Shown one piece after another: positions 2,916 to 62,551 of a DNA stretch of 64,000 bases. The stretch covers positions 11,153-75,152 of the forward strand of contig JASEFS010000005.1 in the NCBI GenBank assembly GCA_030018495.1, read 5' to 3'. Positions within the stretch are counted from its first letter, which is position 1, and each line of letters begins with the position of its first letter. A program made the position numbers and the translations under genes. A model generated the notes under the pieces. It was not told the DNA's origin. It did not search any database and saw only the letters and a list, made by a program, of their open reading frames with translations. The DNA is from Deltaproteobacteria bacterium (GTDB taxonomy: Bacteria; Desulfobacterota; Desulfobaccia; Desulfobaccales; 0-14-0-80-60-11).

Positions 2916-4034
2916 TCAGATTTTCACCAATTCATATTCACGAGTGCCCAAGCCCAGGCGCTCGGCGTACTCCAACTGGATGGGCCAGTCGATCTGAGGG
3001 TAGAGGTCCTTGAACTTGTCGCTGCCGGGAGTGAGGTCTTTCAGTTCCGAACCGGGGAGTCCGGGGCTCTGGATCACCATATCGGCGCAGGCCTGGTCGA
3101 TGGCCACCGGGTCGGCGGAGGCCATGATGCCGATGTCGCCGACGATGGGGAAGTCGTTGAAACCGTAGCAGTCGCAGGCCGGGGACACCTGGGTGATGAA
3201 ATTGATGAACAGGGACCGGTCCTTTTTGTTGAGCATGACCGCGTAGGCGTATTCCATCATCTTTTTCAGAAACACGGGGATGGCTTCGTTCCATTGAATC
3301 TGGATGTTGCCGTAAGGGCAGGTGGCGATGCATTCGGCGCAACCCACGCATTTTTTGGGGTCGATGACGGCCTTCTCCGTCTCCGGGTTGATGTGGATGG
3401 CTTCCGAGGCGCAGACGGCCACGCAGTCGCCGCAGCCGGTGCATTTCTTTTCGGTGATCACGGGGCTGATGTTGCTGTGCTGGGCCAGCTTGCCTTTGCG
3501 GGAGGCGCCGCCCATGCCCATGTTTTTCAAGGCGCCGCCGAAGCCGGTCATTTCATGGCACTTGAAGTGGCTCATGACCACCATGCCTTCGGCTTCGTAA
3601 AGGGCCTGGGCCAGGTAGACCCGGTCGAACTGCTCTTTATTGATCTCCACTTCCACTTCGTTTTTGCCGGTGAGGCCGTCCGCAATGATGATGGGGGCCC
3701 GGGTGACCGCGTAGGCAAAGCCGTTTTCAATGGCCGTGATGAGGTGACTCACCGCTTCCAGGCGGGTCCCCAGGTACAGGGTGTTGCTGTCGGTGAGGAA
3801 GGGGTTGGCGCCGCTCTCCCAGAGGGCGTCCACCACCAGGCGCACGAAATTGGGGCGGATGTAGCTGGTGTTGCCTTTTTCCCCGAAGTGTATCTTGATG
3901 GCGATCAGGGGCCGCTTCTTTTTGCGCTGCACGATTTTTTTCACGTCCAGGGCCTTTAAAAGCTTTTGGAACTTCTGGAAGTTGGTCTCTTTGAGCGACG
4001 CGCGCAGGTCCATGAAATAAACGGTGCTGGGCAT
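2916..4034 (-). CDS. DUF362 domain protein with inserted 2x[4Fe-4S] ferredoxin domain
   Basis: 372 aa. The N-terminus VYFMDLRA...IAIKIHFGEKGNTSYIRPNFV is the DUF362 pattern. CTGCGDCVAVCASEAI and CVGCAECIATCPYGNI are two CxxCxxCxxxCP clusters. Confidence 0.75.
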   Translation of the reverse strand: MPSTVYFMDLRASLKETNFQKFQKLLKALDVKKIVQRKKKRPLIAIKIHFGEKGNTSYIRPNFVRLVVDALWESGANPFLTDSNTLYLGTRLEAVSHLITAIENGFAYAVTRAPIIIADGLTGKNEVEVEINKEQFDRVYLAQALYEAEGMVVMSHFKCHEMTGFGGALKNMGMGGASRKGKLAQHSNISPVITEKKCTGCGDCVAVCASEAIHINPETEKAVIDPKKCVGCAECIATCPYGNIQIQWNEAIPVFLKKMMEYAYAVMLNKKDRSLFINFITQVSPACDCYGFNDFPIVGDIGIMASADPVAIDQACADMVIQSPGLPGSELKDLTPGSDKFKDLYPQIDWPIQLEYAERLGLGTREYELVKI

Positions 4035-13524: not shown

Positions 13525-13749
13525 TTTACCCACGCATTTTGAATCAACTTTCCGTGACGCCCATCCGCTTTTGCCAGCCCGTGCGGCAAGTTCTGAAGCT
13601 GCCATGAAAAGGATTGGCGAACAGGTGTACTCACCTGCGCCATTTTAATGACAAGGCGGGATGCGCTTCGCTTTCCCGCCTTACGAATTCAGGATTTATG
13701 CCAAGTTGCCCTCCTAAATCCCAATTCACATCTTGTCGCCGAGGTTCCG

Positions 13750-14655
13750 TCAGGTATTCGGGTTGACGTCCGTCATGCGGCTGATGACGGAGTCCCGGGG
13801 AACGCTACATATGGCGGAGACCTGCTTCGGATCAAATCCCAGACAAAGGGCGAGGAGCTGGTTGTAATCAAAGACCGGGATTCTATATCGCTCTTCGCCA
13901 ATCTGCTCATTAAGGGTATTCTGAACCCGCTCCATGTGCATCAGGCAGGTAATGCAGGAGACCGCGATGAAATCGGCCTTGGTTTCAGCAAGTATGGCAT
14001 CGAACTTGGCTTTGGCGAATGCGACAGCCTGCTCCGGAGTGCTTTTCATGAAGCCGCCGGCGCCGCCGCAGCATTGCAGTTCACGGCTGTAGCCGTCCAC
14101 CGCGGCGCCCAGCGCCTCCACCAGCCGCCGCAAGCCCTGCGGCGCCCGGGGGGATTCTTCAAAGCCCACGACTTCGCTCGGGAACAGGGTATGGCAGGGA
14201 TATTGGACGACGCCATGGAGTCCCTTCAGACTTTTTTTGCGATGCGCGGCAATCTTCTCCGGGCCGATTTCCTTAAAGAGGACCTCCGACACGTGGCGCA
14301 CCCTGGATTTACCCGTGACCTGGCGGCCGGCGGGCTCCAGCAGTTCGTTGACGCGCGTCAGTTTTTCGGCATCATGCAGCAGATGCTCCCGACCCATGCA
14401 CAGGGAGCTGTAACAGGAGCCGCACTGGACGACGAAATCGCACCCCTTTTCCTCGGCAATGGAGAGGTTCCAGCCGCTGGTCGCCATCCAGGCCTCCTCA
14501 TCCGCGGACGGAAAGGAGCCGAAGGCCGGACAGCAGACGTAATTGTCGGCATCCACCAGCTCAATGCCAAGAACAGGCATGGACGCCCTTATGGCCCGCT
14601 CCACATCAGGCCGGATGGCAGGGGTGTTACAGCCCGGGAAGAAACATAATTGCAT
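13750..14655 (-). CDS. hdrB: Heterodisulfide reductase subunit B-like (two CCG domains)
   Basis: FFPGCN...YVCCPAFG and QYPCHTL...LQCCGGAGG are the CCG motifs. The start was chosen at the ATG after AAGGAAAAAGAG; the ORF track start is 14676. Confidence 0.85.
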   Translation of the reverse strand: MQLCFFPGCNTPAIRPDVERAIRASMPVLGIELVDADNYVCCPAFGSFPSADEEAWMATSGWNLSIAEEKGCDFVVQCGSCYSSLCMGREHLLHDAEKLTRVNELLEPAGRQVTGKSRVRHVSEVLFKEIGPEKIAAHRKKSLKGLHGVVQYPCHTLFPSEVVGFEESPRAPQGLRRLVEALGAAVDGYSRELQCCGGAGGFMKSTPEQAVAFAKAKFDAILAETKADFIAVSCITCLMHMERVQNTLNEQIGEERYRIPVFDYNQLLALCLGFDPKQVSAICSVPRDSVISRMTDVNPNT

Positions 14656-14699
14656 CTCTTTTTCCTTCATATGCAAGAAGACGGCTCAAGCAGCGGCCC

Positions 14700-15209
14700 T
14701 TATCCGCCGAACATGTAGTCGTTTTCGCTGACTATCCGGGTCTTCATGAGCATTGCACGGAACAGTTCCAGTTGCTCCGGGTTGTTGGTTATGGTGTTCA
14801 ATCGGGGCAAACCCAAAGACTCCCGCAGTTCCGTGTTCACGCCCACAGCCTGGGTATAACCCCGCTTGTAGATCTCGACGATGGCCGTGGGCACCCGGGT
14901 CTCATCGTTTCGGCACTGCCATTGCCGAATAAAGAGAATCATCTCAAAGGGCATGACATTCATGGGGCACATCTCTTCGCATCTTGAACAGGAGACGCAG
15001 GCCCATGGGGTGTCATCGTCGAGGAGTTCCTCCTCAAGTCCCAGGATCAGCTTGCGGGCCAGGTTTCTGACCAGAAGGGGCGGGTCTCCATGGGAGGCGG
15101 GACATCCGGATATGCAGGTGCTGCAGTTGAAACAATAGTGGAGATTGCCTGCACTGTAAACATCTTGCCACAGGTCTTTGACCGATACTTCTTGCAAGTC
15201 CATAGTCAC
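14700..15209 (-). CDS. hdrC: Heterodisulfide reductase subunit C-like (2x[4Fe-4S])
   Basis: CFNCSTCISGCP and CVSCSRCEEMCP are the cluster motifs. The gene lies immediately upstream of hdrB. Confidence 0.85.
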   Translation of the reverse strand: MTMDLQEVSVKDLWQDVYSAGNLHYCFNCSTCISGCPASHGDPPLLVRNLARKLILGLEEELLDDDTPWACVSCSRCEEMCPMNVMPFEMILFIRQWQCRNDETRVPTAIVEIYKRGYTQAVGVNTELRESLGLPRLNTITNNPEQLELFRAMLMKTRIVSENDYMFGG

Positions 15210-15218
15210 CGCCTCTTA

Positions 15219-18200
15219 TCACCCGGCCGACGCAAGCGGACGGTCCATAAGCTTGGCATCAATGGCGGCCATCAACTGCTTGTCGCCCCAGCCCCTGACC
15301 TCAGCCGCATTGTTCTGGCATTCAACCGCGCACAGGCCGCATGCCTGGCACGCGGCGGCATCAATATCAATACATTTGTCCGCCTCATTATAGGATCTGG
15401 CGCCGTACGGACAGATGTTGACGCATCTCCGGCAGCGCGCGCACAAGGCGTCTTTCACCATGGAAGTGACCGCGGCCGTGGGCAACTCCCTGCCGGACAA
15501 ATAAGTATAAGCCTTCTGGGCCGCGGCTTCGGCCTGCAGAAGCACATTCTTCAAAGGCATCGGCGAGTGGGCCGTACCAGCAAGATAAATTCCCACTTTC
15601 TGAAATTCGATGGGGCGCCATTTGGAATCCGCTTCGGCCAAAAAGCCGTCCTCGGTCAAGGAAAGATTTAAGGCATCGGCAAGCCCCTGGTTCGACTCTC
15701 CCGGGTCCACGCCCGTGGAAAGGACCAGCAGGTCCGCGGGCAGCTCCATCTCTTCTTTCAGGACCGGGTCCGTAAACTTGACGACCGGCCGGCCCTCCGC
15801 CATCTCCACCCGAGGCTTGGCATCCGGGCTGTAATTCACGAAGATAATCCCGGCTGCCCGCGCCTTCGTATAGTACTGCTCGTAAAAGCCGTAGGTCATG
15901 ACATCGCGGTAGAGAATAAAGACCCGGGCATCGGGATTTTTTTCTTTGATCTCCAGGGCATTGCCGATGGCCCCCAGGCAGCAGATGCGGCTGCAGTAAC
16001 GGCGCCCCTCCTTCTGCCGCGAGCCCGCACACTGAATCATCACGACATTTTCGACTTCACTGACGTCAACGTTGCCGTCGGTTAATCCTCTCTTCAATTC
16101 CGCCTGGGTCAGCACCTTCTCCGAGGTCCCGTAGCCGTATTCGGTAGTGGCTCCTTCGCGCCCGCCTGTGGCAATGATCATCGCGCCATGGTGTAAGTAC
16201 TTGTTTTCACCGTTATTTTTAAAACGCAACTGGGACTCAAAGCGGCCCAGGGTGCCGAGGCTTTTCTCAACTTCACAGTTCAGATGGACCGTTATGTGCT
16301 TGTGCGCGAGCACTTTCTGCCTCAAGTCCGCGGCCAGGGCCACCGGGGCCAGCCCGTCAATGGTATGTTCCACCCGGGTGCCGAGATAACCGCCCAGATG
16401 GCCTTCCTTTTCCACCAGATGCACCGGCACGCCCCGGTCGGCCAGGGACAGGGCGGCCGTCATGCCGCCGATACCGCCGCCGATCACCAGGGCGGTCTGA
16501 TTGATGGGCAAGGTGTTCACCTGCAGGGCCGGTTTATACTTGAGGCTGTGGATATCTGCCTTGATTTCCCCCGCCGCCCGCAAGGTCCAGTCCGCGGCGG
16601 AAGGTTCGGCCATGCCTCGCCGGGCTACTCCGAACAGATCAAATATCTCCACCATGGCGGAGTTGAACCCAGCCTTTCGGGCGACATCCTTCAGCTTCCG
16701 CCGGTATATGAAAGGCTGGCAGGCCCCGATCAGCAAACGGTTGCAGGCTGTTTTGGCGAGGCTGTCAAGCAGGGCCGCCTCTCCGTCCGCCTTGCAGATG
16801 GAATCTATGACCTGGACCGCGCCCACTGACGGGTAGCGCGTTAGTTCGGCGCGGAAAAGCTCATAATCAAGTCCGGCTGCACCTGTCTTTTCCCCGCATC
16901 TGCAGAGGGCCACCGCCACCAGGGGCAGTTCCCGGGCCTTAGAGGCCGGCTCGGGGATATCCTCCTTCTTAACGGTGTCAACGCCCAAGGCAGTCAGAAA
17001 TTTGGCTGCCTCCCCTGCCGCGGCAATGCCGCTGATTATGGCCTCGCTGATATCGGTGAGCCCCGTCAGGGAACCGCAGAGAAACAGGCCGGGTTTGCCG
17101 GCGACCCTCACCATGCCGGGCTGTTCTGTCGCAAGCAGGCCGCGCTCATCCAGCGGCGCCTTCAGCAAATCGGCCCATCTCCTGTGGGCCTCAAAAGGTA
17201 TCTGGCCTGTTGACAGTACCACCAGATCGAAATCCTTCTCAAAGAACTCATTAGTCTCGGGATCGTGATAACGCATCATAAGACTGCCGTCCGGCTTGAG
17301 CATAACCCCCTGCACCCGGCAGCGGATAAGCTTGACCCCATGCTCCTCGACGGCCTTGTCCCGGTACTGTTGAAAGCCTTTGCCGAACGTTCGCATATCC
17401 ATGTAAAAAATGGTGGCCTCAACTTCAGGTCCGCCTTTCTGTTTGGCCAGGACGGCCTCCTTGAGCGCGAACATGCAGCATATGGAGGAACAGTAGTCTC
17501 TATGCTGGCGCCTGTTCCGTGATCCCATGCATTGGATCCAGGCAATCTTTTTAGCCGGCCTGGCGTCGGACGGCCGCCTGATCGCGCCGCCCTGATACGT
17601 GCCGGAACTGCTCAGCACCCGCTCAAAGGCAAGGGAGGTGACCACATCCGGCGACACCGCGTAGGACCTGGCATCCTCGAAATCACGAGTATTATAGAGT
17701 TGCACCCCGGAAGCCAGGATGACGGCGTGAACCTCCCTGGTCTCCACTTCGTCCTGGGCATCCAGATTGATGGCACCGGTGGGACAGACCTTCAGGCATT
17801 CACCGCAGCGGGTGCAGGCCTGCTTGTCGATGAGCAGCATCCTCGGGTTATTGTGAGGCACCGCTTGGTAGACCGCCTTCCGCCTGGTCAGCCCGTGGTT
17901 GAACTCGTCCTCGACTTCGACGGGACAGACGTCGATGCACTTTCCCAATTCGTTGCAGATTGCCGGGTCGATGAAGCGGGCCCTCTTCCGCAGGTCCACC
18001 CGGTAATTCCCCCCGTTGCCCTGCACCGAGTCAATCCCTGTAAACGGCAGGATCTCGATGTTTTCATGGAACAGGCTTTTTCGCATGCAGTACTGCGAAG
18101 CATACTCGCGGCCCACCAGGGGCAGCATTCTGCACATGCCGCAATGGTCCGTCGGGAACTGGTAATCAAGTTTGGCCAGGATGCCCCCCATCTGCGGGGA

Positions 18201-18314
18201 TTCATCGGTGAGTATTACCTTATAGCCTGATTCGGCCAACTCTATGGCCGCCTTGATCCCGGAAATGCCGGCGCCGACCACCAGGACTGTGCCTGTGGGC
18301 TTCTCTTCAGCCAT
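15219..18314 (-). CDS. hdrA: Tandem HdrA-HdrA fusion flavo-iron-sulfur protein
   Basis: 1031 aa with two complete HdrA-like units. The first has VLVVGAGISGIKAA...HCGMC...CTRCGECLKVCP...CSSICC. The second has LCRCGEK..., ALVIGGGIGGMTAA...CSRICC...CARCRRCVNICP...CQACGLCAVEC. Confidence 0.85.
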   Translation of the reverse strand: MAEEKPTGTVLVVGAGISGIKAAIELAESGYKVILTDESPQMGGILAKLDYQFPTDHCGMCRMLPLVGREYASQYCMRKSLFHENIEILPFTGIDSVQGNGGNYRVDLRKRARFIDPAICNELGKCIDVCPVEVEDEFNHGLTRRKAVYQAVPHNNPRMLLIDKQACTRCGECLKVCPTGAINLDAQDEVETREVHAVILASGVQLYNTRDFEDARSYAVSPDVVTSLAFERVLSSSGTYQGGAIRRPSDARPAKKIAWIQCMGSRNRRQHRDYCSSICCMFALKEAVLAKQKGGPEVEATIFYMDMRTFGKGFQQYRDKAVEEHGVKLIRCRVQGVMLKPDGSLMMRYHDPETNEFFEKDFDLVVLSTGQIPFEAHRRWADLLKAPLDERGLLATEQPGMVRVAGKPGLFLCGSLTGLTDISEAIISGIAAAGEAAKFLTALGVDTVKKEDIPEPASKARELPLVAVALCRCGEKTGAAGLDYELFRAELTRYPSVGAVQVIDSICKADGEAALLDSLAKTACNRLLIGACQPFIYRRKLKDVARKAGFNSAMVEIFDLFGVARRGMAEPSAADWTLRAAGEIKADIHSLKYKPALQVNTLPINQTALVIGGGIGGMTAALSLADRGVPVHLVEKEGHLGGYLGTRVEHTIDGLAPVALAADLRQKVLAHKHITVHLNCEVEKSLGTLGRFESQLRFKNNGENKYLHHGAMIIATGGREGATTEYGYGTSEKVLTQAELKRGLTDGNVDVSEVENVVMIQCAGSRQKEGRRYCSRICCLGAIGNALEIKEKNPDARVFILYRDVMTYGFYEQYYTKARAAGIIFVNYSPDAKPRVEMAEGRPVVKFTDPVLKEEMELPADLLVLSTGVDPGESNQGLADALNLSLTEDGFLAEADSKWRPIEFQKVGIYLAGTAHSPMPLKNVLLQAEAAAQKAYTYLSGRELPTAAVTSMVKDALCARCRRCVNICPYGARSYNEADKCIDIDAAACQACGLCAVECQNNAAEVRGWGDKQLMAAIDAKLMDRPLASAG

Positions 18315-18324
18315 AATGCCGCTC

Positions 18325-19455
18325 CTATTTGACCTGGCCGGTCACTTCAATCAGCTCATCCGTTGCGAAGCCGGCCATGGGCTGTTCTTCTTCCAGGGAT
18401 CGTCCCGCCTGATAGTCGAATCGGGCCTGGGTCTTCTCGGCGCATGTCCTGAACAGCGGCATCAGGTCAAGGCCGTTCGGGCAGGCGCTGGTGCACTGGC
18501 CGCAGCCGACGCAGAAAAGGCTCATGTGGGTCAGGCGGGTCAGGTGGTAGAACATGGTGTCGGTGGGCATTTTCAGCATGCCGCTTTGTTCCGCCCACAT
18601 CATGAACTGCTCGCCGGTGTGCCGGAAGGTGTCCGTGATGAAGACGCATTCCTTGCAATAGCAGACCGGGCAGGCAACCCGGCAGTTGTAGCAGTTGACG
18701 CAGCCGGCCAGTTTGTCTGCCAGAGCCTCGAAGCTGTTGACTTCAGCCCGGAATTCGGCAAACTTCTTATCCCTGGCCTCCAGGCGCGCCGCCGCCAGTT
18801 TCTTCACCGCCTCATTCCTGCCGGCAGGGGCCTCACTCGGCTTCATGCCCGATTTTTCCAGAGTCTGCCCGCCTTTTTCGGTTAGGGCTTCGATGAAGAC
18901 GGCGCCGTTTCCCCCGCCTATGGCACACAGGCTTAAATCGGCATTGGCAGCCGTCGGGAATTCACATATCTTGCAGGCGCCGACGATATCGAAGTCCGGC
19001 CCGGAGGTCTTGCCGGCCAGGGCGTTCTCCAGGAAAGCCTCGGATGTGCCTCCCTGCTCCTGGAATTTGACGAAATCGGTATTTTCATAGCGGCCGAGAC
19101 AATCCATGCCGATCAGCAGGACATCATCCAGATTCACCTGCTTCAGCTTGGCGAGTTCAACCACGGCTCGAATTTCACAGGGCCGCAGGACCATGGCAAT
19201 GGTTCGTCCGGATGGCCGCGAGGTAAGTGAAGAGGCGATTTTTGCGCCGCTAACGGCCGCGACCGGGGCAAAAGGATCGACCCCGGCAGTATGTGAGGCA
19301 GAGGTTACGAGTGTCAGCCGGACCCATTTGTGGTTTTGAGCCATCGGCACAAGGACGCCATCAACCGCCCCATTTTCCAGCAGGCCTCGGAAAAACGCGG
19401 CAAGTTCCTTATTCAGTCCGCCTTTTTGAAAAGACAACTTTGCATATTCAGCCAT
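18325..19455 (-). CDS. FrhB/FdhB-family-like iron-sulfur (flavo)protein
   Basis: The N-terminal two thirds (MVLRPCEIRAVVELAKL...LLIGMDCLG) resemble the F420-hydrogenase/dehydrogenase beta-subunit fold. The C-terminus has CVNCYNCRVACPVCYC and CVGCGQCTSACP clusters. Family call is tentative. Confidence 0.5.
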   Translation of the reverse strand: MAEYAKLSFQKGGLNKELAAFFRGLLENGAVDGVLVPMAQNHKWVRLTLVTSASHTAGVDPFAPVAAVSGAKIASSLTSRPSGRTIAMVLRPCEIRAVVELAKLKQVNLDDVLLIGMDCLGRYENTDFVKFQEQGGTSEAFLENALAGKTSGPDFDIVGACKICEFPTAANADLSLCAIGGGNGAVFIEALTEKGGQTLEKSGMKPSEAPAGRNEAVKKLAAARLEARDKKFAEFRAEVNSFEALADKLAGCVNCYNCRVACPVCYCKECVFITDTFRHTGEQFMMWAEQSGMLKMPTDTMFYHLTRLTHMSLFCVGCGQCTSACPNGLDLMPLFRTCAEKTQARFDYQAGRSLEEEQPMAGFATDELIEVTGQVK

Positions 19456-19474
19456 TTTCTGCCATCTCCGTGCC

Positions 19475-19903
19475 TTATATCGCCATTTGGCCCATGTTCT
19501 TAAGGGGGCTCGGCCCGAGCTCTTTCAGTTTCGCCGTCATTTGCACTGCCACTTCCCTCAGCATGGTTCCCTCACTGGCGGCGATCCACCTGAGCCAGAA
19601 GCGCTCTTCGCCGATGCCGTACTGCTTCAGGACCTCGGTGAGGAGCGCCACCCGGCGCCGCGCCTTCAGATTGCCGTTGATGTAATGGCAGTCCCCGGGC
19701 CAGCAGCCGCCGATCAGGACGCCGTCCGCGCCGTTCAGGAAAGCCTTGATGACATACTTCGGATCCACCATGCCGCTGCACATAACCCTGATGATTTTGA
19801 GGTTGGGCGGGTAGGAAAGACGTGAAGTTCCGGCGAGGTCTGCGGCGGTGAAGGTGCACCAGTTGCAAAAAAACGCCACTATTTTGGGTTCAAACTCGCT
19901 CAT
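19475..19903 (-). CDS. mvhD: MvhD/FlpD-type [2Fe-2S] hydrogenase delta-subunit-like protein
   Basis: 142 aa. KIVAFFCNWCTFTAADLAG...IIRVMCSGMVDP...GADGVLIGGCWPGDCHY is the MvhD signature. Confidence 0.88.
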   Translation of the reverse strand: MSEFEPKIVAFFCNWCTFTAADLAGTSRLSYPPNLKIIRVMCSGMVDPKYVIKAFLNGADGVLIGGCWPGDCHYINGNLKARRRVALLTEVLKQYGIGEERFWLRWIAASEGTMLREVAVQMTAKLKELGPSPLKNMGQMAI

Positions 19904-19913
19904 GGTTAACTCC

Positions 19914-22900
19914 TCAGTTAAGTAAAAGGCCGTCTATTTCAGCAAAGATCTGTTTATCGGTAAAGTGTCTCACCTTGGCGGCGCCGCTCGGGCAAGCGCC
20001 GGAGCAGCTTCCGCAGCCTTTGCAGATGGCGCTGTTGACTTCGCTGACTCCGGCAAACTTGTTGAATTCAATGGCCGAATAGGAACAGAGCCCGAGACAA
20101 AGCTGGCAGCCGACGCAGATGTCAGGGTCGATACTGGATATCATGGGCGGGATCTCAACCTGACCCGCGGAGCTCAATGCCAGGCATTCCGCCGCGGCTC
20201 CCTTGGCCTGGGCCACCGTGTCCGGGATGTCCTTCGGCCCCTGGCAGGCCCCGGCCAGAAAGACGCCGCTCGTGGGGGTGGAGACGGGGGCCAGCTTCGG
20301 GTGTTGTTCCTGAAAGAATCCGTCCGGACCGATGCCTATGCCGAACTTCCGCATGACCTCCGGAGCATCCGGCCTGGCCTCCATGGCGGTGCAGAGAATG
20401 ACCATGTCCACCTTGACTTCGATGAGGCGGTTGGAAAGCGTATCCTCTCCCTTAACGGTAAGAATGCCGTTCTCGTCCTCGGTGATGGAGCCGGCCTTGC
20501 CGCGGATCATCTTGACCCCTTCGGCCTGCACCTTTTTGTAGAATTCCTCGTAGCCCTTGCCGAAACAGCGCATGTCGATATAGAAGTTGTAGACCTCGGT
20601 GTCATGCCCGCATTTATCCTTCAGCAGGTGGGCGTACTTGAGGGCGTACATGCAGCAGGTGCGGGAGCAGTATTCATGGTAGTTTTTGTCGCGGCTGCCC
20701 ACGCAATGGAGAATGGCCACGCTTTTCGGCGGGTCGGTGAACTTCAGGGGGTCTTTCAGATCGCGTTTGAGGAGTTTGCCGGCAGTCGGGCCGGTGGCGT
20801 TGGAAAGACGCTCGAATTCAATATTGGTGAAGACGTTCCGGTACTTGCCGTAGCCGTACTGAGTCATCCCGGCCGGGTTCATGGGATCAAAACCGGTGGC
20901 AATGATGATGGAGCCGACCTCGATGGTTTCCTGCGTATCAGTCATGTCGTGGTCAATGGCGCCGGCCTTGCACTCGTTGACACATAGTTTGCATTCGCAG
21001 CAGCTGCCGCAAAGCACGCAGCGGCCCGCCTCGGTCCTGGCCTGCTCCTCGCTGAAGCCCAGTTCGACTTCATTATAGTTGTGGATGCGCTCTGCCGCGG
21101 GCAAGACGGGCATCTTCGCCCGCGGCAGGCGCACGATATTTTTGGGAATCCCCCTCCAGTTGCTCCCGGTGGGCTTGCCGGGTCTTTTTTCCGCCAGTTC
21201 CTCTTCCAGCAGGTATTTTTCTATGGAAATAGCCGCCTGCTGTCCCGCGGCCACGGCTTCGACGGCGTTGGACGGACCGGTAAACAGGTCGCCGCCTGCG
21301 AAGATGCCCGGGAAGCTGGTCTGATAAGTCACCGGGTCCGCGGCGACTGTGCCCCAGGGGGTCATTTCGACGCCTTCGGTGCCTTCCAGGAATTTGGGGT
21401 TGACCTGTTGACCGATGGCCGGGATAACCATGTCGCAGTCAATTTCAAATTCGGAACCGGCCACCGGGACCGGCCGCCGCCTGCCGGATTCGTCGGGTTC
21501 GCCGAGCTCCATCCTGATGCAGCGGATGCCGCAAACCTTTCCATCTTCAGCCAGGATCTCAATCGGATTCACCAGCAGTTCGAGCTTGACGCCTTCTTCC
21601 TCCGCGGCCAGGATCTCACTTTTCACTGCCGGCATCTCCGCCCTGCTCCGGCGGTAGAGTATCATCACCTCGGAGGCGCCCTGCCTGATGGCTTCCCGGC
21701 TGGTGTCAATGGCCACGTCGCCGCCGCCGACCACCACTACCTTCCTGCCGGTCTTGACCGGCTGTTTGTAATTGAGCAGGTTCAGATAATCGATGCCGGG
21801 TATGACGCCTGCGGCATCCTCGTTCCGGATATTCAGCTTCACGCTTTTGGGCGCGCCGGTTGCCAAATAGATGGCCTTAAATCCCTCCTTGAAGAGTCCG
21901 CCGACCGGACGGTTCTTGCCGATGGAGACGTTCATCTGGAAATCCACGCCCAACTTCCTGATGTAGTTGACCTCCTGCTCCAGGATTGCAGGCGGCAGCC
22001 GGTAGTCAGGGATGCCGTAGCGCAGGACCCCTCCGGCTTGGGGCGCCTTTTCGAAAATCGTCGGATGGTACCCCTTTTTGGCCAGGAAATAGGCGGCGGA
22101 AAGCCCTGCCGGACCGGCACCGATGATGGCCACCTTTTCGGTGTCAGGCTTTTTCTCAATGGTCGGCACCGGCAAGGTGTCCCAATCAACCTGGTCCGCC
22201 GCGAAGCGTTTCAATTTGGAAATCGCCAGCGGGGCATCAACCTCCTGCCGTCGGCACTTGGTCTCACAGGGGGCGGGGCAGATGCGGCCAAGAGAGCCGG
22301 GAAGCGGCATTTTTTCCATGATCAGGTCGAGAGCCTCCCGGTACTTCCCCACTCTGATCAGGGCGACAAACCCCTGGATGTTGATGCCGGCCGGACAGGT
22401 CTGCACGCAGGGAGCCCGGTCTTTTTTATCAATGGCATAGCGCACCGGCACAGCCTGAGGGAAGGAGATATAGATGGCCTTGCGCATCTTGGTCCCGACA
22501 TCCCATTCGTTGGGGGCCTCGATGGGGCAGACCTTGGCACAGTCGCCGCAACCGGTGCAGTTCGTCCTCACATAACGGGAGCGCTGGTTGACTTTGACTT
22601 TGAAGTTGCCCACAAAGCCGCTGACGCTCTCTACTTCCGTATTGGTCAGCAATTGAATATTCTTGTTCTGGCCGACAGCCACCATCTTCGGGGTGCCGAT
22701 GCAGGCCGCACAGTCCAGGGTCGGGAAGGTCTTGTCATACTGGAGCATGTGACCCCCGACAGTGGGCTGCCGTTCCACCAGATAAACCTTGTTGCCGGAA
22801 CTGGCGATATCCAGAGCCGCCTGCATGCCGGCGATGCCGCCGCCGACCACCAGGGTATTGGGATTGACCGAAAATTTGCTGGGGTAGAGGGCGCTTTGAT

Positions 22901-23288
22901 GCGTGACCCGCATCAGACCGGCCCTGACCAGGACGATGGCCTTTGCCGTAGCCTCATCTTCGGTCTCTGAGACCCAGGAGCCGTGTTCACGAACACAGAC
23001 CATATGAAAGCCGCGATAGGGATTCAACCCCGCCCTTTGGCAGGCGGCGCGGAAGGTTTTTTCATGCATGCGGGGCGAGCAGGAGGCCACCACCACCCGG
23101 GTCAGATTTTGATGCTTTATTTCCTTCTCAATGAGGTCCTGTCCCGGGTCCGAGCACATGAACAGATAATCCTTGGAGACTACGACGCCGGGGAAGGCGG
23201 CCGCATATTGCACCACCTCCTCCACTCTGACACGATAGGCGATGTTGATCCCACAGTGGCAGATGAAAAACCCGATCCGCTCAGACAT
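19914..23288 (-). CDS. hdrL: HdrL-type large HdrA homolog with inserted GltD/NfnB-like NAD(P)H module
   Basis: 1124 aa. The HdrA N-domain is IGFFICHCGINI and the FAD site is LVVGGGIAGMQAA. Residues about 290-695 carry CVQTCPAGINI...GRICPAPCETKC plus KVAIIGAGPAGLSAAYFL and VVVVGGGDVAID (glutamate synthase small-subunit pattern). The HdrA core then resumes (CSRTCC, CVGCQLC, CKGCGSCSGACP). Confidence 0.8.
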   Translation of the reverse strand: MSERIGFFICHCGINIAYRVRVEEVVQYAAAFPGVVVSKDYLFMCSDPGQDLIEKEIKHQNLTRVVVASCSPRMHEKTFRAACQRAGLNPYRGFHMVCVREHGSWVSETEDEATAKAIVLVRAGLMRVTHQSALYPSKFSVNPNTLVVGGGIAGMQAALDIASSGNKVYLVERQPTVGGHMLQYDKTFPTLDCAACIGTPKMVAVGQNKNIQLLTNTEVESVSGFVGNFKVKVNQRSRYVRTNCTGCGDCAKVCPIEAPNEWDVGTKMRKAIYISFPQAVPVRYAIDKKDRAPCVQTCPAGINIQGFVALIRVGKYREALDLIMEKMPLPGSLGRICPAPCETKCRRQEVDAPLAISKLKRFAADQVDWDTLPVPTIEKKPDTEKVAIIGAGPAGLSAAYFLAKKGYHPTIFEKAPQAGGVLRYGIPDYRLPPAILEQEVNYIRKLGVDFQMNVSIGKNRPVGGLFKEGFKAIYLATGAPKSVKLNIRNEDAAGVIPGIDYLNLLNYKQPVKTGRKVVVVGGGDVAIDTSREAIRQGASEVMILYRRSRAEMPAVKSEILAAEEEGVKLELLVNPIEILAEDGKVCGIRCIRMELGEPDESGRRRPVPVAGSEFEIDCDMVIPAIGQQVNPKFLEGTEGVEMTPWGTVAADPVTYQTSFPGIFAGGDLFTGPSNAVEAVAAGQQAAISIEKYLLEEELAEKRPGKPTGSNWRGIPKNIVRLPRAKMPVLPAAERIHNYNEVELGFSEEQARTEAGRCVLCGSCCECKLCVNECKAGAIDHDMTDTQETIEVGSIIIATGFDPMNPAGMTQYGYGKYRNVFTNIEFERLSNATGPTAGKLLKRDLKDPLKFTDPPKSVAILHCVGSRDKNYHEYCSRTCCMYALKYAHLLKDKCGHDTEVYNFYIDMRCFGKGYEEFYKKVQAEGVKMIRGKAGSITEDENGILTVKGEDTLSNRLIEVKVDMVILCTAMEARPDAPEVMRKFGIGIGPDGFFQEQHPKLAPVSTPTSGVFLAGACQGPKDIPDTVAQAKGAAAECLALSSAGQVEIPPMISSIDPDICVGCQLCLGLCSYSAIEFNKFAGVSEVNSAICKGCGSCSGACPSGAAKVRHFTDKQIFAEIDGLLLN

Positions 23289-25614
23289 GAAGCTCCTCCT
23301 GAGAAAACCCCAATAACGCCCCGCTGTCTTTCTTTCCGGTTTTTACCATGGCATCCGACAAATCAACCGACTGCAGAAGCAGCTCCGAGATATCCAGGAC
23401 CTTCAGCCTGTCTCCGGCATTCATTCGGGTGATGGACTCGTTGAGCATGCGGATGCAGTAAGGGCAGGCCGTGGCGATCACTTCGGCCCCGGTCCCTATG
23501 GCCTCCTTGATCCGTATCCCTGCAAGGTTTTCTTTTCCGGCGCCGTTTTTCCAGGGCCCGCCGCTGCCGCCGCCGCAACAGAAGCTCCGTTCCCGGCTGT
23601 TCTGCATTTCAATCAGGGTCACCCCCGGGTTGGATTCCAGGATTCTGCGGGGGGCTTCGTAAACGGCAGAATGTCTGCCGAGGTAGCAGGGATCATGATA
23701 AGTAACTTTGAGGTCAAGTCTGTGGACGGGTCTGATGGAGCCCTTTTGGACGAGTTCACTCAGAAGCTCGGAAGAGTGAACAACAGCTACATTCTTCAAA
23801 CCTTCATAAGTTCTTTGGAAGGAATTCAGACAGTGAGGGGAAAGGGTAAGGATTTTGGAAACCCCTGCCTCCAGAAACAGTTGGGTGTTCTTCCGGGCCA
23901 AGTCTGCGGCAACTTCCGCAGCTCCGATCTTTTCCGCCAAGTCGCCGCAACAATTCTCCCTTGTTCCCAGAGTTCCATAGGAAACGCCGGCATGTTCGAG
24001 CAGGCGCAGGAGAGCGAGGCCTGCATTTTGGCTGCCTTTGCCGTTATCGGTGTCGTAGGCCATGGCACAGCAGGTGAACAAGCAATACTCATGTTCTTTT
24101 GTGTAAGTTGGCAGGCTTGCGCCCTTGGCCCAATCCAGGCGATCTTCCCGTTTTCCTCCCCAAGGATTGCCGTCTTTCTGCAAATTCGCCACCGCGGCGT
24201 TAAAAAACACCGGCAGCAATCCCGCGTCCACGATCTGACGGCGGACGGATTTTACCAGCTCAGTCAAACCGATGCCCCGGGGACAGTGGGCGACGCAACT
24301 GTTGCAGGTGGCGCAGGTCCACGAGGCCTCATCCACAGAAACGTTGGTGGAAATGTCCAGGGAGATATCCCGGAGGATCTTCCGGGGACTGTAGCTCGTA
24401 ACTTCCCCCCAGGGGCAAACCCCGGTGCAGGCGCCGCACTGCATGCAGCTCTGGAAGGTCTCATCCGCTTCCAGACGGATTGTCGCAAGGTCGGCCTGAG
24501 AGTCGCGCCGGGCCTTTGCCTTCAGGGTGGTCAGGAAGATGGCCAAAGGCCTGTACATCAGGTGGGAAAGCTTGCCGAAAGGCAGCATCAGGCAGAGCAT
24601 GCCCACGCAGATGGCGACATGGATCACATAGATGCTGTAAGTCATAAGCGGCAAGCCGGCAAGCCGAAAGAGGTGCACCATGATGCCGGTCGTGGCAATG
24701 CTGATGATCAACACCAGGAAGAACACGTCCGTAAAATCCGAATACCGGTGAGGTTTGGCCTCTTTTTTGAACCAGCGGCTGTAAAGCATGCTTGTGGAGG
24801 CGACCATCAGGGCGATGGTGGCGTAGTAGCCCAACAGCCGGGTCCAATGCCAGACCGGCTGAACCATGTCGGTCTGGAAGGAGGAGAGATACCCCATAAC
24901 GAGGATCTCCATCGACACCCAGCCGGAGAACAGGAAGAGATGCCTCCACCAGGCGCTGCCCGGACCTGTCCCACATTTCCCCCACCGTTTTTGGGTGAGG
25001 TAATTGATAAAGAACACGGGCGCCTGGGTCACATAAAGATAAAGGGGTATCTTTGTGCCTTTCATAATTCGGTAATGCATGTGGGCCGCATTGGAGAACA
25101 GCATCACAAACACGAATCCCATCATGATCCGGTCGCCGAGATGGACCCAATGAACCGGAGCGAAGGTGGTGAGTTCCACGCGGTCGGTAACGACCGGCCC
25201 GTGAAAGACCAGGAAAAGCAGGACAACGAACAGGGCAATGCCGAGAAAGGCGGCCAATTCAGTTTTGGGCGACGTATAAAACCGCCAGGCAAGCCCCGTC
25301 CAGTCGTACTGGGTTATCAGCCAGCGCCGGGTCGCCATCATGGTTTCGGCGGGCTCCGCGCCCCGAGGGCAGTCGGTGTTGCAGTCGCCGCAATAATAGC
25401 ACAGCCAGGGTTCCGGAGATTCCAGCAGCTTGTCCCTCAGGCCGAGCTGAAGATAGCGGTAAATTCTGCGAGGAAAGGTGTTCTCTCCGGCTGACAAAGG
25501 ACAAGCAGAGGCGCAGTTGCCGCATTGCATGCAGACTTCCATATCCCTGGCCCCAAGCCTTTTGAGCTCGCCGTACAAATCCGGACTGACGTTATTTTCC
25601 TTCACGATATTCAC
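23281..25614 (-). CDS. Membrane-bound fusion: HdrC-like ferredoxin / NarI-DsrM-like cytochrome-b membrane domain / HdrD-DsrK-like CCG domain
   Basis: 777 aa. The N-terminus has CMQCGNCASACP...CYYCGDCNTDCP. Roughly 6 hydrophobic helices with conserved His follow. Then CMQCGACTGVCP...CATCNSCVAHCP and the CCG motifs TCCAMAYD and FCCGGGSG. The start is a GTG and is uncertain. Confidence 0.75.
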   Translation of the reverse strand: MNIVKENNVSPDLYGELKRLGARDMEVCMQCGNCASACPLSAGENTFPRRIYRYLQLGLRDKLLESPEPWLCYYCGDCNTDCPRGAEPAETMMATRRWLITQYDWTGLAWRFYTSPKTELAAFLGIALFVVLLFLVFHGPVVTDRVELTTFAPVHWVHLGDRIMMGFVFVMLFSNAAHMHYRIMKGTKIPLYLYVTQAPVFFINYLTQKRWGKCGTGPGSAWWRHLFLFSGWVSMEILVMGYLSSFQTDMVQPVWHWTRLLGYYATIALMVASTSMLYSRWFKKEAKPHRYSDFTDVFFLVLIISIATTGIMVHLFRLAGLPLMTYSIYVIHVAICVGMLCLMLPFGKLSHLMYRPLAIFLTTLKAKARRDSQADLATIRLEADETFQSCMQCGACTGVCPWGEVTSYSPRKILRDISLDISTNVSVDEASWTCATCNSCVAHCPRGIGLTELVKSVRRQIVDAGLLPVFFNAAVANLQKDGNPWGGKREDRLDWAKGASLPTYTKEHEYCLFTCCAMAYDTDNGKGSQNAGLALLRLLEHAGVSYGTLGTRENCCGDLAEKIGAAEVAADLARKNTQLFLEAGVSKILTLSPHCLNSFQRTYEGLKNVAVVHSSELLSELVQKGSIRPVHRLDLKVTYHDPCYLGRHSAVYEAPRRILESNPGVTLIEMQNSRERSFCCGGGSGGPWKNGAGKENLAGIRIKEAIGTGAEVIATACPYCIRMLNESITRMNAGDRLKVLDISELLLQSVDLSDAMVKTGKKDSGALLGFSQEELHV

Positions 25615-25656
25615 CTTGAAACCAAAGGGACGAGAAACCGTTTCAGGTCCCCCAAA

Positions 25657-25672
25657 AGCATATCCAATACCC
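25657..25672 (-). promoter_or_regulatory. Sigma-54 (-24/-12) promoter candidate for the hdr cluster
   Basis: The minus strand reads GGGTAT-TGGAT-ATGCT, with GG and GC at the canonical 10-nt spacing. It lies about 45 nt upstream of the first cluster gene. It shares the ATGCTTT -12 region with the candidate at 27742. Confidence 0.4.
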
Positions 25673-26091
25673 TGTCCCGCACTGCGGGCAGTCAGTCCTG
25701 CGCCTGGCCTCTCTTAAAGAAAATCAAAGAGAGACTCTACCACTTGCGGCCCGGAGCCTCTGACGCGGGTCAAGGCGGCGGCCGGTAACCGAATGTCGAG
25801 AATATGGCTGATGTCCGCAGGCGTGTTTTTCTAGGGGGCAAAGTCAAATATCCCCAGGCCTGACCTTTTGCCGGCTCACCCGGGGAGCGGCCAGACGGGC
25901 CGCCGGAAAACATATTAATTGCCAAGCCTAAGCTGATTCTCCTTTTTCCCGGACATAAGGTCCGCCTCCGGCTTGCACTCAGGCGCACGCGAAGAGAGCC
26001 AACCTTTCCTTTCCAATCATCATGCCAGGTTAGACTGTTTTATAAGCATTTGTAATTAATGAAAAATTAAAATTGGAGCCCTTCCCTGACG

Positions 26092-26148
26092 AAAAAAAGG
26101 GAACAATATGACCCCATTTTCATCCGGCAATGGGGTTAAATTGTTCCC
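26092..26148 (-). terminator. Rho-independent terminator of the sigma-54 activator gene
   Basis: The minus strand reads GGGAACAAT-tta-ACCCCATT-(10 nt)-AATGGGGT-cat-ATTGTTCCC followed by TTTTTTT. It lies 57 nt after the stop. Confidence 0.8.
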
Positions 26149-51443: not shown

Positions 51444-53645
<2,202 letters not shown>

Positions 53646-60523: not shown

Positions 60524-62551
60524 ATGAAAGGCAACCCGATGTTTTTCCGCAAAACCGAAGAAGAACCGGCCAAGCTCAGCCCCGAACTGCAAGAGCTGCG
60601 CGCCGCCCTGGCCAAGGCGAATCTGCCCGAAGCAGTAGCCGCGGTGGCCAAAAAAGAGCTGGAACGCCTGGAAAAAACCGACCCCAGCGTGGCCGAATAC
60701 AGCATCGGTCTCAATTATCTCGAGTTCCTGCTGGGACTGCCCTGGAACCGCTCCACCGATGACAACCTGGACCTGGGCAATGCCGAAATAATCCTGGAGC
60801 GGCGTCACTATGGACTCAGGCCGGTCAAGGAGCGGGTTTTGGAATTCCTGGCCGGGCGCACCTTATGCAGCCTCCAGGCCTCCCGGGTCCTGGTGGTGGA
60901 TGACGAAGAGATCGCGCGCACCAATTTGGAATACATCCTGAGGAAAGACGGCTATCAGGTGGCGACTGCGGCCAGCGGCCTGGAGGCCCTGGACCGCCTC
61001 AAAGAGCAGGATTTCGATTTGGTCCTGACCGACCTGAAGATGGAAAAAATGGACGGCCTGCAGTTGTTGGAAAGCGTCAAGCAGACCGCGCCGGCCACGG
61101 ACATCATTATGATTACGGGCTATGCCACCGTGGCCACCGCGGTGGACGCCTTGCGCAAAGGTGCGGCCCATTACCTCTCCAAACCCATCAACCTGGATGA
61201 ACTGCGCAGCAGCGTACGTGAGATCATCGACAAAAAGCGCCATTTTCAGCTTTCCCAGGGTCCTGTCCTGTGCTTTGCCGGGCCGCCGGGCACCGGCAAG
61301 ACTTCCATCGGCCAGGCCGTGGCCGAAGCCCTGGGCCGCAAGTTCGTGCGCCTGTCATTGGCGGGGCTCAGGGACGAAGCCGAGCTGAGAGGCCATCGGC
61401 GCACCTATGTGGGGGCCATGCCCGGCCGCATCATAAACGAACTGCGGCGCCTGGAGGTCAACAACCCGGTGTTCATGCTGGACGAAATCGACAAGATCGG
61501 CCAGGACTTCCGGGGTGATCCGGCCTCCGTCCTGCTGGAAATCCTGGACCCGGAGCAAAACCGCCATTTTGTGGACCACTACCTGGACGTGCCCTTTGAC
61601 CTGTCCCGGGTGATGTTCATCGCCACCGCCAATATAGTGGAAACCCTGCCCGCCCCCTTGCTGGACCGGTTGGAAGTCATCCAGTTTTCGGGTTATACCG
61701 AGCACGAAAAAAAGGAAATCGCCAAAAAGTTCCTGCTTCCCAAGCAGCTTCGCACGCACGGCCTGGCCAACCTGGCGGTGGAGGTTGCCGACGACGCGGT
61801 CGTCAAGGTGATCCGGGATTACACTCGGGAGGCGGGTCTGCGCCAGCTGGAAAGAGAGCTGGCCACCATCTGCCGCAAGCTCGCCCGGCTGGCGCTCCAG
61901 AACAAAAGCGCGGCAGGGTCGCTGGCAGTGGACGAATTGATGGTTGAGAAGCTCCTTGGACCCCGCAAGTTCACTCATGAAGCCGCGGAAGGCGAAAACC
62001 GGGTAGGGGTGGCCACGGGGCTGGTCTGGACGGAATTCGGCGGGGAAATCATCTTTGTGGAAGCGACCCGCATGAAAGGTGTGCGCCAGTTGATTCTGAC
62101 CGGCTCTTTGGGGGACGTGCTCCGGGAATCGGCCCAGACCGCGCTGAGCTATGTGCGCAGCCACGCCAGGGAATTGGGGATCGATCCAGATTTTTTCAAG
62201 GAAAGCGATATTCACATACATATCCCTTCCGGAGCTATTCCCAAGGAAGGCCCCTCCGCCGGGGTGACCATAGCCATGGCCCTTATCTCCCTCCTGACCG
62301 GCCGCCCGGCCCGCCGCGCCGCGGCCTTGTCCGGGGAAATGACTCTGAACGGCCGGCTTCTGCCGGTCTCCGGCATCCGGGAAAAGCTCCTGGCCGCCCA
62401 ACGCGCCGGCGTCACCACGGTGATTTTGCCCCAGGGCAACGAAGTGGACGTCAGAAGTCTGGGGGATGAAGTAAAGGAAGGCCTGGAGATAATTATGGCT
62501 GAAGAGGTGGGGCAGATAGTGGATAAAGTTTTGCTGGCCGAGCCGCAATAA
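60524..62551 (+). CDS. lon: Lon-family ATP-dependent protease lacking the LON N-domain, with an inserted CheY-like receiver domain
   Basis: Residues 1-110 match only the distal helical part of the Lon N-region (HYGLRPVKERVLEFLA). Residues about 121-236 are a full receiver (VLVVDDEE...LVLTDLKM...IMITGY...YLSKP). Then come the AAA+ module (GPPGTGKTS, VFMLDEID) and the Lon_C domain with the catalytic KEGPSAGV Ser and SGIREKLLAA Lys. Confidence 0.85.
   Translation: MKGNPMFFRKTEEEPAKLSPELQELRAALAKANLPEAVAAVAKKELERLEKTDPSVAEYSIGLNYLEFLLGLPWNRSTDDNLDLGNAEIILERRHYGLRPVKERVLEFLAGRTLCSLQASRVLVVDDEEIARTNLEYILRKDGYQVATAASGLEALDRLKEQDFDLVLTDLKMEKMDGLQLLESVKQTAPATDIIMITGYATVATAVDALRKGAAHYLSKPINLDELRSSVREIIDKKRHFQLSQGPVLCFAGPPGTGKTSIGQAVAEALGRKFVRLSLAGLRDEAELRGHRRTYVGAMPGRIINELRRLEVNNPVFMLDEIDKIGQDFRGDPASVLLEILDPEQNRHFVDHYLDVPFDLSRVMFIATANIVETLPAPLLDRLEVIQFSGYTEHEKKEIAKKFLLPKQLRTHGLANLAVEVADDAVVKVIRDYTREAGLRQLERELATICRKLARLALQNKSAAGSLAVDELMVEKLLGPRKFTHEAAEGENRVGVATGLVWTEFGGEIIFVEATRMKGVRQLILTGSLGDVLRESAQTALSYVRSHARELGIDPDFFKESDIHIHIPSGAIPKEGPSAGVTIAMALISLLTGRPARRAAALSGEMTLNGRLLPVSGIREKLLAAQRAGVTTVILPQGNEVDVRSLGDEVKEGLEIIMAEEVGQIVDKVLLAEPQ

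Follow-up and report, generated by a model that had tools for sequence, protein, structure and literature searches.

A conserved Hdr-type operon of Desulfobacterota combining HdrL and a tandem HdrA with a QmoC- and HdrD-like membrane fusion

Sulfate reducers and syntrophs live near the thermodynamic limit, and the electron traffic between NAD(P)H, menaquinol, ferredoxin, and DsrC in these bacteria is only partly understood. Seven minus-strand genes for proteins of the heterodisulfide reductase (Hdr) type, found in a 64,000-nt stretch of a deltaproteobacterial genome (contig JASEFS010000005.1; hereafter the window), raise the question of what kind of enzyme such a set could encode and whether the combination is as unusual as a first-pass annotation had proposed. 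In order of transcription, these genes code for a fusion of a QmoC-like with an HdrD-like module (G1), an HdrL (G2), an MvhD-type adaptor (G3), an FdhB-like protein (G4), a tandem HdrA (G5), an HdrC (G6), and an HdrB (G7). We find that they form a conserved operon of Desulfobacterota which is partly described as the "HdrABC/HdrL" type but uncharacterised, and whose membrane subunit goes unmentioned in the papers that we searched. It seems possible, at slightly less than an even chance, that the products assemble into a single membrane-anchored multi-flavin complex which would split electrons from NAD(P)H between ferredoxin and HdrCB/G1, the latter with menaquinone or a DsrC-type disulfide as acceptor.

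The seven open reading frames (ORFs) lie at positions 13750 to 25614 as originally annotated and show operon-like packing, with an 8-nt overlap of G1 and G2 followed by gaps of 10, 19, 10, 9, and 23 nt and with Shine-Dalgarno-like sequences upstream of G2 to G6. The last gap widens to 44 nt if G7 begins at ATG 14655, likely its true start (301 aa, as in a Syntrophobacteraceae homolog at locus L085); the longest ORF opens at a TTG without ribosome-binding site, and the ATG is preceded by AAGGAGAAGGAG. For G1, which is 100% identical to MDI6852709.1, the NCBI start lies 3 codons later (774 aa). G5 likewise has an identical database entry, and the contig of both entries is labelled Deltaproteobacteria. 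Hidden Markov model (HMM) assignments agree with each of the seven gene and domain names given previously. All Hdr and Qmo scores nevertheless stay below the NCBIfam equivalog cut-offs, so that the proteins belong to these superfamilies but are not the characterised enzymes.

This arrangement is conserved far beyond chance. The same seven-gene order with near-identical gene lengths is found in the cultured isolate Desulfopila inferna (L083), in metagenome-assembled genomes of Syntrophobacteraceae (L084/85), and in one of Desulfobacteraceae (L086), and the gene order recurs in independent genomes at 51–89% protein identity. Close homologs make up more than 120 clusters at 90% identity for each of three proteins (G1, G5, and G4), with labelled sources that include Desulfobaccales (the nearest relatives of G1 and G5), Syntrophobacteraceae, Desulfocapsaceae, and Desulfobacteraceae; Electrothrix is among the genome loci. 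Among the matches listed by a scan of genome contigs, most are partial relatives with QmoC or HdrD only, and about eight loci are full-length. Among 1.84 billion representatives at 50% identity, the full-length QmoC+HdrD fusion occurs in one only and thus constitutes one compact family. With the exception of L012, in which HdrL is preceded by an HdrD-like match only, G1 stands immediately before HdrL in every Desulfobacterota locus that we read, suggesting that the HdrABC/HdrL complex is probably membrane- and quinone-linked.

Several variants of the locus exist. A common five-gene form comprises G1 to G4 and the tandem HdrA without HdrCB (L002, L006, L022, L082, and L088/89), so that the core function does not depend on HdrCB. 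The tandem HdrA of this form holds a receiver domain (PF00072, E 1e-30, residues 192–301) after the inserted ferredoxin domain (L082:17314-20721, L088:7540-11034, L002, L006, and L022), an odd find inside an HdrA flavoprotein. Immediately 5' of G1, the five-gene loci carry a conserved 63-aa Cys-rich ORF (CVWMRAxVVNFKLCDRxxxCAECxFDKAM) that is absent from the window. In a Dehalococcoidales contig and an Acetothermia contig (loci L038 and L041), a soluble HdrD-like protein precedes HdrL in place of G1, and L038 reads HdrD-HdrL-HdrAA-MvhD without FdhB or HdrCB. An archaeal counterpart in Ca. Methanoperedens sp. (L010:9465-20803) has HdrD-like (340 aa) and QmoC-like (374 aa) proteins encoded by separate genes, followed by a 1084-aa tandem HdrA, MvhD, a 669-aa HdrA, a second MvhD, an FrhB-like protein, a 169-aa unknown, and an FdhA-like N-terminal fragment. 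In the cable bacterium Ca. Electrothrix sp. YB6 (CP178758.1, L005:15736-20717), an insert of ~5 kb with genes for an S-adenosylmethionine-dependent methyltransferase, an Eco29kI restriction endonuclease plus C5 DNA methylase, and a 560-aa protein of unknown function separates HdrL from MvhD.

The notion that the combination is unusual therefore does not hold, also because six of the seven genes match clusters already in the literature, though by description only. HdrL was defined by Strittmatter et al. (2009), whose locus VIII of Desulfobacterium autotrophicum HRM2 contains hdrL, mvhD, fdhB, and hdrA4CB with hdrD2 nearby, while Sfum_0819-0824 of Syntrophobacter fumaroxidans were named "HdrABC/HdrL" by Sedano-Nunez et al. 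(2018; PMC5947623). Like these clusters from sulfate reducers of the same phylum, the window carries adjacent genes for HdrL, MvhD, FdhB-like protein, HdrA, HdrC, and HdrB without an adjacent MvhA or FdhA, the combination that marks the HdrABC/HdrL type. In S. fumaroxidans, proteomics detected the complete set of these proteins only with sulfate, and they are abundant under that condition alone (PMC5947623). S. fumaroxidans is absent from the best 120 matches to a Syntrophobacteraceae FdhB-like protein. By analogy with soluble MvhADG/HdrABC, HdrABC/HdrL was proposed to be confurcating and linked to DsrC (PMC5947623); no membrane subunit is mentioned there. The window differs in that the QmoC+HdrD fusion precedes HdrL, whereas the papers on both clusters describe no QmoC-type membrane subunit. 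Our literature searches turned up no description of this fusion or of the seven-gene unit, and nothing on Sfum_0825.

The QmoC-like module of the fusion consists of an HdrC-type 2x[4Fe-4S] domain and a polytopic membrane domain, and its HdrD-like module of a second HdrC-type domain and two CCG (non-cubane cluster) domains, with four CxxCxxCxxxCP motifs at aa 28, 72, 390, and 434. Residues 15–359 align to positions 7–358 of the 360 in NCBIfam qmoC NF038018 (E 2.2e-66), and residues 377–748 align with HdrD/TfrB-type proteins (Pfam CCG, E 1.9e-28; two Fer4_8 domains). A dihaem-type membrane domain had been postulated for G1. In its favor, homology to QmoC spans the full length of the family, but the score of 224.8 bits is below the curated cut-off of 300 and the fold match to NarI is weak. 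An AlphaFold2 model of aa 1–380, built with stand-alone QmoC-like homologs, reached a mean predicted local distance difference test (pLDDT) score of 83.9 and shows an HdrC-like head followed by long helices at 116–137, 154–183, 191–213, 220–241, 257–281, 294–318, and 322–346. Foldseek searches with this model returned no match at E <= 0.001; the best-ranking structures were HdrC for the N-terminal domain and then, weakly, NarI chains (probability 0.75–0.98, E 0.3–1.2, TM-score 0.32–0.42). The model of full-length G1, based on a 16-sequence alignment, had a pLDDT of 54 and was left out of the fold search, and when the PDB was searched with a G1 family profile, no membrane-domain relative emerged by sequence. 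Three histidines (His225, His332, and His351) do not vary among the QmoC-like homologs, whether fused or stand-alone, and we presume that this domain is the heme-b, quinone-facing part of the protein.

QmoC itself is a heme-b, quinol-reactive HdrC+HdrE fusion with two quinol-reducible hemes b (PMC3333476). Similar to QmoABC, the cluster encodes a membrane subunit that fuses an HdrC-like to a presumed HdrE-like cytochrome-b domain, two HdrA-type flavoproteins, and an MvhD-type module, and quinol-linked confurcation has been proposed for that system. Unlike QmoABC, G1 falls below the qmoC cut-off and has an extra HdrD-like half, aprBA and sat are not adjacent, and HdrL and the tandem HdrA take the place of QmoA and QmoB.

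Among solved structures, mycobacterial EtfD (9ojn_A) is closest to the C-terminal half of G1, with an E value of 1e-55 when the single protein is searched and of 2.7e-74 with the profile; the match covers only residues 421–756, approximately. As in EtfD/EMO and HdrDE, a heme-b membrane domain would be combined with four clusters, two of them cubane and two non-cubane, and the cytoplasmic partners of those systems are linked to (methyl)menaquinone or methanophenazine. Unlike EtfD/EMO, however, the membrane domain of G1 is of QmoC type with an extra HdrC-like domain in front, and the similarity of EMO-type proteins to G1 is confined to the part from residue ~320 onward. We do not place G1 in the EtfD/EMO family: a NarI-type N-terminal domain leading straight into the HdrC-like and CCG parts is absent, and no etfAB genes are found adjacent or nearby.

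This relationship bears on the chemistry of the CCG domains. The two CCG disulfide-reductase sites previously assigned to G1 and G7 are present as domains, but their reading as catalytic sites was overstated, given that the corresponding clusters are non-catalytic relays in EtfD/EMO, the closest solved relative of the C-terminal half of G1. There they pass electrons to heme b and menaquinone and the distal cluster is variable, as it also is in BamD. CCG domains need not indicate disulfide reduction, and a complex without any such chemistry can be envisaged in which the CCG clusters of G1 and perhaps HdrB would be pure relays and an NAD(P)H:menaquinone oxidoreductase would use exergonic quinone reduction to drive ferredoxin reduction, following a logic analogous to EtfABCX/Fix. 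The electron-transferring role of these clusters in EMO/EtfD and BamD fits this idea, as do the first CCG motif of G1, a variant (C511/C515/C516, CC555-556, C595) without the terminal CxxC, and the five-gene loci that have no HdrB at all. The second CCG motif of G1 is complete (C643-x35-CC-x36-C717xxC720). G7, whose best family match is HdrB (TIGR03288; E 5.9e-65, 219.4 bits against a cut-off of 345), has two complete HdrB-type CCG motifs found by regular expression (CX31-39CCX35-36CXXC; aa 16–88 and 161–244), and it is accompanied by an HdrC-type partner (G6; TIGR03290, E 2.3e-21, 76.3 bits against a cut-off of 160). Besides G7, the soluble HdrD-HdrL pairs of Chloroflexota and Acetothermia, which lack a membrane outlet, suggest a soluble substrate at the CCG site, and the detection of the full S. 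fumaroxidans complex only in the presence of sulfate points towards DsrC (PMC5947623). On balance, we consider a complex without disulfide chemistry unlikely.

The NAD(P)H entry would lie in HdrL. G2 is a complete HdrA, with N-terminal Fe-S domain, a thioredoxin-reductase-type domain for flavin adenine dinucleotide (FAD), and C-terminal ferredoxin domain (HdrA2 NF040770: E 1.6e-231, 770.6 bits, cut-off 1100; PDB HdrA 8rvu_a: E 7e-202, in two stretches), that also carries an NfnB/GltD-type NAD(P)H-FAD-2x[4Fe-4S] module at residues 290–696 (4ylf_B, 2.4e-92; 5jca_L, 9.9e-89). The module splits the inserted ferredoxin domain of HdrA between CxxCxxCxxxC motifs at aa 244 and 763 and comprises Fer4_20 (PF14691, 291–367, E 4.4e-18) and Pyr_redox_2 (PF07992, 385–682, E 3.7e-48), with both Rossmann folds for FAD and NAD(P)H indicated by GxGxxG motifs at aa 390 and 521. 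A YRR motif after the second Rossmann fold suggests that the module uses NADPH. Neither the cluster nor its flanks contain an NfnA/PyrK-like gene for a [2Fe-2S]/FAD partner. The same kind of NfnB insertion is carried by HdrA9-11 of ANME-1 archaea (Chadwick et al., PMC9012536).

Not all of the HdrA units are expected to bifurcate electrons. Three HdrA cores had been counted in the cluster, and three units are indeed present, but only G2 and the first unit of the tandem HdrA keep the equivalent of Lys409, and this number was therefore too high with regard to bifurcation. In HdrA, the FAD associated with this lysine bifurcates electrons, to HdrC/HdrB on one side and to a ferredoxin domain on the other. 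G2 has the DCxxC (C193/C196) and CCMYALK (Lys884) motifs of bifurcating HdrA. In G5, which scores 677.7 bits against the HdrA cut-off of 1100, unit A aligns with residues 8–376 to residues 144–500 of HdrA 5odc_A and keeps both the Cys197-type motif (HC58GMC61) and the lysine (CCMFALK285), but has neither the N-terminal nor the C-terminal HdrA domain. Unit B supplies these parts (458–645 on HdrA 6–191; 869–1024 on HdrA 502–655), with a CxCG at aa 471 in its N-terminal Fe-S domain, a FAD core resembling sHdrA (608–948 on 6tjr_A, E 2.1e-31), and a C-terminal 2x[4Fe-4S] domain; it lacks the Cys197 (DCxxC) motif and has Gly784 at the position of Lys409 (CCLGAIG). The two hallmarks of methanogen HdrA, the lysine of the bifurcating FAD (Lys409 in M. 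wolfeii) and the inter-protomer ligand Cys197, are thus found in G2 and unit A but not in unit B, which leaves two bifurcation-type HdrA flavins instead of three. The asymmetry between a lysine and a non-lysine unit is shared by 113–116 of 116 full-length homologs.

The tandem HdrA is hence a conserved asymmetric pseudo-heterodimer, a design that it shares with BamE and with fused HdrAs from archaea that oxidise methane. Cryo-electron microscopy showed that BamE is a fused HdrA dimer with one bifurcating (Lys) FAD and one non-bifurcating, structural FAD (bioRxiv 10.64898/2026.04.10.717634). The BamDEF system of Geobacter metallireducens further resembles the window cluster in its MvhD-type adaptor, the HdrD-like CCG protein as high-potential outlet, and the presence of a further NAD(P)H/ferredoxin-linked bifurcating module in the complex. 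Unlike it, the window cluster lacks the tungsten protein BamB/BamC and the HydABC-like BamGHI, and its NAD(P)H module is of NfnB type and inserted in HdrA; moreover, the class II benzoyl-CoA reductase is cytoplasmic whereas the window operon encodes a membrane anchor. In anaerobic methanotrophic (ANME) archaea, the clusters of fused HdrA3/4 and HdrA9-11 also hold FdhB-like, MvhD, and HdrD-like genes. G5 mirrors the complementarity of these fused HdrAs, but the order of its units is reversed (the Cys197 unit comes first) and its host is bacterial.

The adaptor G3 and the FdhB-like G4 would connect these flavoproteins. The best PDB matches of G4 are FdhB chains of methanogen Fdh/Elp-Hdr complexes, aligned nearly over the full length (10–359 of 376): 9t1s_M (E 5.6e-32; query 10–122 and 161–359 on 17–127 and 186–377 of 383), 8rvu_E (1.6e-26), and 7bkb_E (6.6e-17). 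The protein has 17 cysteines and two CxxCxxCxxxCP motifs. Structures of methanogen complexes prove that FdhB/ElpB and MvhD/ElpC dock on HdrA as a donor arm (PMC12350162). The window cluster shares this arm with Fdh-MvhD-HdrABC and ElpABC-HdrABC, and likewise an HdrB with two complete CCG motifs, but it has no FdhA/ElpA, its bacterial host lacks coenzymes M and B, HdrL and the tandem HdrA stand in for HdrA, and a membrane module is added. The hydride donor could accordingly enter at G4 as in Elp-Hdr, with F420H2 or another deazaflavin- or flavin-reactive donor, and the NfnB module would then be an NADPH-making output. The homology of G4 to chains that oxidise F420H2 at an FAD speaks for such a route, and so does the lack of FdhA, which parallels the Elp case where ElpA is catalytically dead. 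However, Pfam FrhB_FdhB_C matches only weakly (1.5e-08), and the model for the N-terminal domain of FrhB does not match at all. Use of F420 is not expected for most Desulfobacterota, and we regard this alternative as highly improbable.

Returning to a single complex as our preferred reading, we picture the following electron path by analogy with the systems above. NAD(P)H, probably NADPH, would be oxidised at the NfnB/GltD module of HdrL, and Fe-S chains would carry the electrons to HdrA-type flavins, with the FdhB-like protein and MvhD as a connecting arm as in methanogen Hdr complexes. The electron pair may be split at one or both of the HdrA flavins that have the lysine, in HdrL and in unit A of G5, with the high-potential electron passing to the CCG modules of HdrCB and/or the HdrD-like half of G1. 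From G1, it may continue through the QmoC-type heme-b domain to menaquinone or be delivered to a DsrC-type disulfide or trisulfide, while the low-potential electron would leave through a ferredoxin domain to ferredoxin. The system is also expected to run in reverse, with menaquinol and reduced ferredoxin yielding NADPH or a thiol. From what we observed, namely which genes are present, how their domains are arranged, the asymmetry of the motifs, and the conserved synteny, we infer one complex, its substrates, and its direction. That one complex connects NAD(P)H and the quinone pool with a low-potential carrier, as suggested earlier, remains plausible. We doubt a more elaborate version, a membrane supercomplex in which two HdrA-type and one NfnB-type bifurcating flavins, arranged in series or in parallel, would be wired to menaquinone via the QmoC-type heme-b domain.

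Several observations weigh against our reading. The membrane domain of G1 has only three invariant histidines and a weak NarI fold match, HdrCB is missing from the five-gene variant, the soluble HdrD-like proteins before HdrL outside Desulfobacterota (L038 and L041) imply that the quinone link is not universal, and with all HMM scores below equivalog cut-offs the substrates may differ from those of any characterised relative. The genes might also encode two or more separate, merely co-transcribed enzymes, such as a membrane unit of G1 and HdrL, to which MvhD and the FdhB-like protein may or may not belong, next to a soluble FdhB-MvhD-HdrAA-HdrCB. The modules do occur apart elsewhere, as in L038, in the five-gene loci, and in the split genes of Methanoperedens, and only the FAD/NAD-binding subunits were detected in syntrophically grown S. 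fumaroxidans (PMC5947623). Yet the gene order, the junctions of 8–23 nt, and the overlap are kept across families, and the cluster has just one MvhD but two HdrA-type proteins. In addition, HdrL is self-complementary (N-terminal domain plus Cys197 motif) and the tandem HdrA internally complementary, so that both could dock on shared partners. We judge separate enzymes to be an improbable solution.

Other known systems were also compared and set aside. A methanogen-type HdrABC equivalog is excluded by the scores of G2, G5, G6, and G7, all below the HdrA, HdrC, and HdrB cut-offs. DsrMK(JOP) can be dismissed with a DsrK score (NF045796) of 49.3 bits against a cut-off of 400, Flx-Hdr because no Flx genes are present, and Tmc/Hmc because the scores for TmcB and HmcF fall far short of the respective cut-offs.

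A convergent spermine-synthase-like gene downstream and, across 515 nt, a divergent gene of unknown function upstream are unrelated to the cluster. The upstream region (Table 1) contains no sigma-70-like match; by eye, we spotted a sigma-54-like TGGCAT-N5-TTGG ~400 nt upstream of G1, which we do not count as evidence. Terminator-like sites occur on both strands at the hairpin downstream of G7, but their total in the region is not above that of shuffled sequences and this evidence is weak. Within the cluster, the frequency of sigma-70-like and terminator-like sites likewise does not exceed that of shuffles and is uninformative on transcript structure. An Rfam scan found only four tRNAs in the window, none of them in the cluster. 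As annotated before, no catalytic subunit of a hydrogenase or formate dehydrogenase is encoded among the ~30 other ORFs of the window that were scanned, nor did we find apr, sat, qmoAB, or FdhA/ElpA-like genes there. These ORFs represent ordinary chromosome (cobA/hemD, pyrB/pyrC, pgk, gap, glycosyltransferases, katG, a PPDK-like gene, TauE, and Lon). Three of the proteins encoded in the window have features of their own: a Lon-type protease (60524-62551, plus strand) has a response-regulator receiver domain (residues 122–231) ahead of its AAA+ and Lon_C domains, a KatG-type catalase-peroxidase with two peroxidase domains (51444-53633, minus strand) is encoded in the genome of a seemingly Desulfobaccales-type anaerobe, and a DUF362 protein (2916-4034, minus strand) contains an inserted 2x[4Fe-4S] ferredoxin domain.

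Table 1. Coordinates of the cluster genes, their domains, and associated elements (window positions unless a locus is given).
Feature	Position	Strand	Description
G1, QmoC-like + HdrD-like fusion	23281..25614	-	777 aa; qmoC NF038018, Pfam CCG, Fer4_8 x2
G1 membrane domain	24499..25287	-	about aa 110-372; six to seven predicted helices
G1 CCG (non-cubane cluster) domains	23365..24102	-	about aa 505-750; regular expression, invariant Cys columns in alignment
G2, HdrL	19914..23288	-	1124 aa; HdrA2 NF040770, PDB HdrA and NfnB matches
NfnB/GltD-like insertion in G2	21009..22418	-	about aa 291-760; Pfam and motif positions
G3, MvhD-type [2Fe-2S] adaptor	19475..19903	-	142 aa; Pfam FlpD E 2.5e-50, full length
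G4, FdhB/ElpB/FrhB-family Fe-S (flavo)protein	18325..19455	-	376 aa; PDB FdhB chains, Pfam FrhB_FdhB_C
G5, tandem HdrA-HdrA	15219..18314	-	1031 aa
G5 unit A	16980..18314	-	aa 1-445; HdrA thioredoxin-reductase core + inserted ferredoxin domain
G5 unit B	15219..16943	-	aa 458-1031; N-terminal Fe-S domain, second FAD core, C-terminal ferredoxin domain
G6, HdrC-type 2x[4Fe-4S] subunit	14700..15209	-	169 aa; TIGR03290, Fer4_8; motifs at aa 26, 71
G7, HdrB-type subunit	13750..14676	-	308 aa; TIGR03288, Pfam CCG x2
Divergent intergenic region upstream of G1	25615..26129	-	515 nt; presumed promoter region
Hairpin in convergent intergenic region downstream of G7	13616..13641	no strand	possible bidirectional terminator
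63-aa Cys-rich ORF of five-gene loci	L082:9709-9900, L088:3-194, L089:3-191, L002:9746-9934		

On its own, the window is ordinary and holds a well-conserved ortholog of a gene cluster that had already been noticed. What our analysis adds is the adjacency of G1 to HdrL (with the exception of L012), the asymmetry of the tandem HdrA, and the caveat on CCG domains. Should the QmoC+HdrD fusion be part of the same complex, HdrABC/HdrL, published as a cytoplasmic confurcating enzyme, would have to be redrawn as a quinone-linked membrane complex, which would also be a natural system for studying coupled bifurcation modules. The multi-bifurcation supercomplex considered above, if it exists, would allow Desulfobacterota to interconvert NADPH, menaquinol, ferredoxin, and DsrC-type thiol/disulfide, and it would make the supposedly soluble HdrABC/HdrL of sulfate reducers a respiratory membrane complex.

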